Assembly (NCBI GenBank): GCA_964016885.1
Contig: OZ024746.1
Coordinates: 87,110,001-87,174,000 of the forward strand
DNA length: 64,000 bases
Direction: 5' to 3'
DNA from: Eledone cirrhosa
Lineage: Eukaryota
The notes beneath the pieces are model-generated. The model saw only the letters and a program-made list of their open reading frames with translations. It ran no database searches and was not told the origin of the DNA. The stretch's first letter is position 1. Each line of letters begins with the position of its first letter. The position numbers were made by a program, and so were the translations under genes. Positions 36,772 through 37,452 of the stretch are shown piece after piece.

Positions 36772-37452
36772 TTATTAAAATAACATATTAAAGTTTAAGC
36801 AAAGAATCGCTGCTTTCACCCTTAACGGGATCTTCTGAAACTAACAAAGTCAATCTGTAAACGCAGAACTGGATATTTCAAAAAACGTTGCAACCGGAGG
36901 AAGACAGGAAGACGATACTTTAGTTCGTGGAAACGTTCGCTGGCAAAGAACGGGAAAAAACGAATATAATACGTCATTAATAGGAGCGGTGAAAAACAAT
37001 TACGCGCAAAGACAGAACCACGTTTATGGTATAACAGAGGTGGTAGACTAATGTTCTCTTAGGTGGTGCATAGAGACGTTCTCTGGCAATGAATGAAAAA
37101 AACGTAGATAATACGTCATATGTGGAGCGTGGAGAACAATAGCACGCAAAGACAAAACCACGTAACGCTCCACATATGACGTATTATCTACATTTTTTTC
37201 GTTCATTGCCAGAGAACGCCTCTATGCACCACCTAAGAGAACATTAGTCTACGACCTCTTTTATACCATAAAAGTGGTTCTGTCTTTGCGCGTATTTGTT
37301 TTTCACCACTCCTATTAATGACGTATTATATTCGTTTTTTCCCGTTCTTTGCCAGCGAACGTTTCCACGAACCAAAGTATCCTCTTCCTGTCTTCCTCCG
37401 GTTGCAACGTTTTTTTTAAATATCCAGTTCTGCGTTTACATATTGACTTTGT
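36772..37452. mobile_element. Family X copy with fold-back inversion
   Basis: One orientation runs to ~37163, then an inverted copy to 37452; (TA)n on both sides. Confidence 0.85.
36783..36858 (-). ncRNA. Variant hammerhead fold (CAGAAGA core), family X
   Basis: AGTTT-CAGAAGA-TCCC-GTTAA-GGGT-GAAA-GCAG-CGATTCT-TTGC-TT-AAACT; all three helices pair. Confidence 0.62.

Follow-up and report, generated by a model that had tools for sequence, protein, structure and literature searches.

We found that a retrotransposon family of Eledone cirrhosa carries a type I hammerhead motif in which A replaces the strongly conserved U at core position 4, and that this A (A4) is fixed in the source element. Based on the sequences of the motif and its relatives, we put at roughly 0.55 the probability that the motif is a slowed-down ribozyme that is still under selection. 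A preliminary description of this DNA had proposed either a functional variant ribozyme or a hammerhead scaffold kept for a non-catalytic role. Both readings stay live, and the evidence leans to the slowed, selected ribozyme. Copies were followed from the window (the whole stretch of DNA analyzed, 64,000 nucleotides) into the 3.0-Gb assembly that contains it.

The A4 motif and the element that carries it

Core position 4 is A in all five copies in the window, and core letters 3-6 are CAGA (Table 1). Rereading of the letters bore out the positions and the A4 that the preliminary description had reported for each copy. The three-helix layout that it had described is also present, with corrections to some copies: the copy at 36783..36858 has one mismatch in the outer helix, where the 3' strand is TTAATATGT; the 5' strand of helix I is altered in the copies at 26721 and 29805; and the copy at 45767 has lost G8 and A14.

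Table 1. Features of the A4 family in the window.
Feature	Position	Strand	Basis or remark
Type I hammerhead motif of the pseudo-LTR, including outer helix I	36783..36858	-	Layout as in published Hydra-clade hammerheads
First core strand CAGAAGA (C3 36837, A4 36836, N7 = A 36833)	36831..36837	-	Letters and genome counts
Helix I 5' strand	36842-36838	-	Letters
Initiator-like TTAGTT; putative start of capped transcripts at A 36842, where helix I begins	36838..36844	-	5' junction hotspot and extra G in other copies
Helix II, 3 bp with 5-nt loop; U and U flanks as in other Hydra-clade hammerheads	36819..36829	-	Letters and published layout
GAAA core strand (36817-36814), helix III to 36798 (5 bp, 7-nt non-palindromic loop) and CUU triplet	36797..36817	-	Letters
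Predicted cut after U17 at 36797	between 36797 and 36796	-	Motif layout
Helix I 3' strand, then a short tail that stops at the first of two common 3' ends (75 nt from start) and abuts (TA)n	36768..36796	-	
5'-truncated piece of element 3' UTR	36859..37165	-	94% to full-length copy
Inverted partner copy of 3' UTR, ending just short of the hammerhead core	37165..37454	+	
Second copy, A4 at 26774	26706..27080	-	
Third, diverged copy, A4 at 29827	29787..29926	+	
Fourth copy, A4 at 45233, inverted partner of fifth	45165..45321	-	
Fifth copy, A4 at 45789; core decayed, 161-nt end complete	45363..45945	+	

The window also contains hammerheads of other kinds. Between 5090 and 7306 there are tandem units of ~310 bp, part of them inverted. 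Every unit has a hammerhead with the canonical U4; the cores lie at 5952, 6264, 6575 and 6882 on the + strand and at 5490 on the - strand. This is a retrozyme-like satellite. Other repeat families have canonical hammerhead cores at 14006-14050 (-), 14926 (+), 1873 (-) and 43287 (-); the one at 14006-14050 (-) scores 29.1 bits with RF00163, below the gathering score.

A4 is nearly invariant in the genome. A pattern specifying 28 places including A4 had 24,470 matches and its reversed control had none, so the motif is not a product of chance. The same pattern with U4 had 822 matches. The first 30 of these were 27 fold-back junctions, 2 truncated copies and 1 diverged colinear copy; at the fold-backs, the inverted partner supplies the U at a TTC-A-GAA quasi-palindrome. 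When copies were anchored by helix I, 19,654 of 19,871 (~99%) had A4. The first 100 of the 217 others had U (37), G (39) or C (24), a split at the level of ordinary mutation. A U4 subfamily in the Eledone genome was ruled out: 27 of 30 U4 loci were fold-backs and, with helix I required, U was no commoner than G. In addition, A4 was present in all 63 copies picked without any hammerhead pattern and in all 18 hammerheads found in 11 long-ORF copies that were fetched. Among the 100 non-A4 copies listed, 7 with C4 lie in one cluster (G000:C3:139.28-139.50 Mb), likely a local duplication. The genome-wide consensus, which the preliminary description had proposed as a check, is A4 and thus lacks the U4 of the CUGA turn. 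The suggestion that A4 was already in the progenitor when the family spread also holds, since A4 is shared by ~99% of copies, by those next to intact ORFs and by an older subfamily (see below).

The flanks of the motif were traced outward in the genome and define an element of ~3.25 kb: a leader, one ORF, the 3' UTR, the hammerhead, a tail and TA repeats. The ORF (709 aa) contains a reverse transcriptase followed by a C-terminal GIY-YIG-type endonuclease. It was open across 545 codons in 11 of 30 ORF-start loci, and 5 of those 11, fetched in full, were unbroken at 708-710 aa. Its ATG is 202 nt downstream from the first base of helix I, and ORF-start and fetched copies have no earlier ATG. The protein has 480 relatives at E<=1e-50; a Pfam scan of three ORF pieces gave no matches. 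Fetched copies contain the motifs RWR, DKT, CNCRNR(A/V)DC, CDLC and CKH, in agreement with the Hydra-clade marks given in the covered part of Craig 2021 (PMC8557442), namely RWK-type, DKT, CxCx5C, CxxC and CxH, without CCHH. The element inserts into (TA)n and also occurs as partial tandems and as 5'-truncated copies in inverted orientation; inverted partners are common. A direct upstream repeat with the hammerhead was found in 16 of the 30 ORF-start loci, with a constant junction before the leader. We assign the carrier, from its protein motifs, layout and TA targets, to the Hydra clade of Penelope-like elements (PLEs), as a recently active retrotransposon. The motif is at the place in the repeat where this clade has a canonical hammerhead, but it has A4.

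A fragment of the A4-family tail is fused at a constant point to another short repeat at window positions 31317-31367 and also at loci L030, L075, L076 and L084. The fusion is possibly a composite non-autonomous element.

The same genome contains a sister Hydra family with 50% protein identity (8,856 pattern matches; L256-L285, L260:1500-3025). This family has U4 in 98 of its first 100 matches. Of the two with A4, one is a fold-back and the other is head to head with a partner. Helix III of the sister family is also non-palindromic, which weakened the idea that A4 was the price of a newly stable helix III. Its matches are unequally divided between strands (5,375 vs 3,481), and this imbalance suggests a tandem array. 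An amplified clone of the sister-family tail without the hammerhead, behind a GT microsatellite (L239, L241, L243, L247, L248, L250 and L255), made up 20 of the first 100 sister-family junction hits.

Constraint on the core and position 4 in relatives

The older subfamily is ~76-85% identical to the young one and has U7 or A7, different loops and a different tail. Position 4 was A in 26 of 30 of its loci, with two fold-back U and two G. In a second set of 10 there were 8 A, 2 G and no U. These copies were chosen by patterns that fix several core letters. Inside the motif, the young and old subfamilies differ at N7 and in the loops. Within the core of old-subfamily copies with U7 (L162, L163, L170, L175, L183 and L185-L194) lies an upstream AUG; the 202-nt leader of the young A7 family contains none.

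We looked at conservation in unselected copies. Sites that mark subfamilies were found at 0 of 55 core and paired positions compared to 16 of 208 upstream positions (Fisher p = 0.028); the tail was left out of these counts because alignments there run into TA repeats. Conservation extends past +35 into the 3' strands of helix III and helix I and spares the loops. All ten scored core letters were intact in 54 of 63 copies, and the rate of rare changes was 1.4%. Outside position 4, the family has the letters of a hammerhead core: C3, G5, A6, G8, A9, G12, A13, A14, the pair A15.1-U16.1, and H17.

The three helices, with helix I open, are likewise retained. In 14 copies, 91.8% of 279 helix cells were paired, compared to 27-53% with the partners slid. 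Helix covariation, the other check proposed in the preliminary description, was not found inside the A4 family, though most cells were paired; that is, nothing in the 14 copies rose above shuffles. There was no Rfam hammerhead match on A4 copies among the matches listed, nor on three loci, two of them with natural U4 copies. Because natural U4 copies were also unmatched, the miss is not due to A4 alone. The predicted minimum-energy structure differs from the hammerhead fold (z -2.5 to +0.5, 7 stretches). Compared to the best fold, the hammerhead fold is predicted to be less stable by 2.1 kcal/mol when the outer helix is included and by 3.4 kcal/mol in RNA that begins at the putative cap site and so is without the outer helix. 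The two core strands had a predicted pairing of 0.34-0.40 with A4 vs 0.02-0.03 in a natural U4 copy. That is, in these models A4 favors pairing of the core strands with each other. The hammerhead reading comes from the layout and from the match in position to other Hydra-clade hammerheads.

U4 prevails elsewhere in the clade, in keeping with the strong conservation of U4 cited in the preliminary description. Using a descriptor open at position 4, we found a hammerhead in 51 of 77 metagenome loci of related proteins (antisense control 0/77), and all 51, which include repeats of one family, have U4, as does the sister family. The 26 Hydra-clade rows in supplementary file S2 of Craig et al. 2021 (PMC8557442) all read CUGA, with a U-flanked helix II and frequent U17. 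The A4-family motif strings were not found in that supplement.

A related family in organism K (run X14) has changed at the same position. Position 4 was C in 21,583 of 27,080 depth units (80%, at least 67 contigs) and U in 3,822 (14%, at least 56 contigs), counting contigs at >=80% identity among the matches listed. The other common changes among these were C at N7 (30%), changes in loop II and the internal loop, and a helix I change that keeps a wobble pair. There was no common change among them at C3, G5, A6, G8, A9, G12-A15 or U16.1. Taking the subfamilies and organism K together, the single-stranded core varies only at positions 4 and 7, each twice. In six runs of low depth (X4, X6, X7, X8, X9 and X11), position 4 was unchanged among the listed changes, apart from one contig of depth 2.9 near its end. 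These runs may be traces of the same organism and were not counted as independent.

We found no U4A hammerhead family in the literature on hammerhead position 4. Work on PLE hammerhead variants, which is incompletely covered here, may bear on novelty; the covered parts of Cervera and De la Pena 2014 (PMC4209133) and of a 2017 review mention no position 4 variant. As far as the literature covered goes, a Hydra-clade PLE hammerhead with a fixed A4 is new.

RNA starts and junctions at the predicted cut site

The 5' ends of A4-family copies are concentrated on the base that opens helix I. In 2,210 exact copies the letter ahead of helix I is not the natural T; among the first 100 it is G in 53, A in 24 and C in 23 (p = 2e-10 for G vs base composition). 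Of 30 such loci, 28 were true junctions and 21 had G, 4 of which may derive from the inverted partner. None of the 28 continued into the ORF, and most ended 75 or 161 nt from the start. The start site reads TTAGTT, or TCAGTT in old copies, which we take to be initiator-like. Untemplated G is a mark of reverse-transcribed caps in LINE-1 and SVA (PMC4859970, covered in part), and the D. virilis Penelope has a promoter within its repeat according to the part of Schostak 2008 considered. Ends at 75 and 161 nt are what internal priming within the tail should produce (Frangieh 2024, PMC11167929).

The sister family has similar starts. In 21 of 30 copies the sequence begins just before the core, several behind a G, and a TATA box precedes helix I by 30 nt in intact copies. 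Based on these junctions, capped RNA appears to begin with the first ribozyme base in two Hydra families, so a capped start is not specific to A4. In several Hydra-type loci among L404-L480, helix I opens with an initiator-like CAGTT or TAGTT, a hint that transcription may begin at the ribozyme throughout the Hydra clade.

Two other interpretations of the starts were discarded. If A4 served to make a 3' splice acceptor (TTTCAG), ends should lie right behind that AG; only 2 of 129 do, and the starts cluster 5 nt upstream of C3. The argument that capped, uncut templates prove the A4 ribozyme dead fails because the U4 sister family shows the same.

We compared junctions at the predicted cut site, dropping internal deletions and microhomology of >1 nt. 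In the A4 family (first 100 of 2,216 hits) there were 15 junctions at -2..0 vs 21 at +1..+5 (p = 0.36). The 5' ends at the site, which the preliminary description had proposed to look for in RNA, show no significant excess among these genomic junctions. In the U4 sister family (first 100 of 360 hits, with 27 places among hits 21-100 left out as one amplified clone or helix I fold-backs) there were 31 at -2..0 vs 14 at +1..+4; once duplicates and the clone were taken out, 28 vs 10 remained (p = 1e-4). The direct comparison of the two families gave p = 0.12. Background truncation is higher in the A4 family, so an A4 excess of the same absolute size (very roughly 1% of copies) is compatible with the counts. 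None of 30 ORF-start loci began at the cut site.

Possible roles of the motif and comparison with known systems

The reading that we favor, a slowed ribozyme under selection, would work as follows. Transcription by RNA polymerase II would begin where helix I begins and give a capped RNA with the ATG 202 nt further on. Priming by the reverse transcriptase would take place in the tail, either 75 or 161 nt past that start or at the equivalent positions of the 3' repeat, and the RNA copied would for the most part be uncut. Rapid cleavage, which would fall 46 nt downstream from the cap, would detach the ORF from the site of 3' priming. Without the U-turn uridine the cut would be slower, and the catalytic G8 and G12 and all helices would be retained for a cut made now and then, perhaps with the help of a protein. 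U4 contacts the A6-N7 phosphate, and a viroid hammerhead with U4C is much slower in vitro and yet supports infectivity (Ambros and Flores 1998, via the covered part of Perreault 2011, PMC3088659). Fold-backs in both families show U/A flips, which can therefore go in either direction, and a template switch at the TTC-T-GAA quasi-palindrome, flipping U4 and A4, is the likely origin of A4. Conservation that tracks the RNA fold, and unpaired-core changes confined to positions 4 and 7, speak for this account, as do the slow viroid variant and the protein-dependent hammerhead of another PLE (Frangieh 2024). Against it we count the low activity of CUGA-turn mutants (see below), the lack of a significant junction peak at the cut site and the lack of compensatory changes within the A4 family, and overlap of the motif with the putative core promoter could explain part of the conservation.

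It is possible, though we consider it rather unlikely, that the ribozyme is dead and that the family spread without cleavage, the sequence being kept as a core promoter and protein-bound RNA element or having had too little time to decay. In a mutational scan of another hammerhead (Roberts 2023, the part covered), single and double mutants of the CUGA turn all had low activity, except for a C3:G8 swap, so the activity of A4 may be negligible. In Frangieh 2024 (PMC11167929, the part covered), cleavage needs the protein of the element and catalytic mutants leave insertion in vitro unaffected, and PLEs without hammerheads proliferate well (Craig 2021, PMC8557442, also in part). The lack of a significant junction peak or of ORF-start loci at the cut site, and the misfold that A4 is predicted to promote, point in the same direction. 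A dead ribozyme does not readily fit with unpaired catalytic positions that are unchanged across subfamilies and in organism K, against two changes each at positions 4 and 7, nor with conservation that runs past +35 to the 3' strands of helices III and I and spares the loops.

A full-speed variant is more doubtful still. Contacts of the outer helix and loops, or the protein of the element, would have to offset the lost U4. Such outer contacts have been suggested to offset variant cores (Perreault 2011, PMC3088659, in the part covered), cleavage is protein-assisted in another PLE (Frangieh 2024), and the rest of the core has been retained for a long time. However, the mutational scan (Roberts 2023, as covered) found no second-site rescue of the turn, and nearly all copies span the cut site intact. 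The weak helix II (3 bp), the CUU triplet and a hammerhead fold that is predicted 2-3 kcal/mol above the best fold also argue against full speed.

That A4 is a neutral hitchhiker, flipped in one lucky source copy that was amplified for unrelated reasons, is highly improbable: flips are frequent at fold-backs and a single source lineage can dominate a genome, but A4 persisted through several subfamilies that are ~20% apart upstream, and the organism K relative is mostly non-U too, with another letter, against U4 in 51 of 51 other Hydra-type loci.

We tentatively suggest, at lower confidence than for a slowed ribozyme as such, that the lineage tunes its ribozyme through position 4. It may have done so twice independently, with A here and C in organism K, keeping a slow or protein-gated cut behind the cap, and each detuned form would have become the dominant, massively amplified source. 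If so, position 4 variants would be a whole class of PLE hammerheads missed by CUGANGA searches. As the A4 family shows, large hammerhead families escape standard motif searches. The A4 family (>24,000 copies), its U4 sister and the C4 relative form a natural allelic series for tests of the role of hammerheads in cleavage and transposition of PLEs. A capped start at the first base of the ribozyme would also constrain models in which the ribozyme makes the RNA ends.

The closest known systems are other PLE hammerheads and a viroid variant. Those of the Hydra clade (Craig 2021, PMC8557442) are like the A4 family in being type I, on the sense strand and in the 3' repeat, with a U-flanked short helix II and common U17, and in the part of that paper covered the protein motifs and TA-repeat targets match those of the A4 carrier. 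The published rows have U4 and a short helix III with a 1-3 nt loop and C15.2-G16.2; the Eledone family has A4 and a helix III of 5 bp with a 7-nt non-palindromic loop and G15.2-C16.2 (CUU). The minimal PLE hammerheads described in the covered part of Cervera and De la Pena 2014 (PMC4209133) are low-activity motifs in pseudo-LTRs with one core covariation, U3-A8. Unlike the A4 family, they lack helix III or have a shortened one and act as dimers. Poseidon PAc of the green anole (Frangieh 2024, PMC11167929) resembles the A4 element in its pseudo-LTR hammerhead, in two internal priming sites that define the tail and in an uncut RNA template. It belongs to a different PLE clade, and the covered part of the paper mentions neither a position 4 change nor a capped start at helix I. 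The viroid U4C variant, as presented in the part of PMC3088659 covered, is likewise a natural change at position 4, but it is a single variant with C, in contrast to a purine fixed in >24,000 genomic copies.
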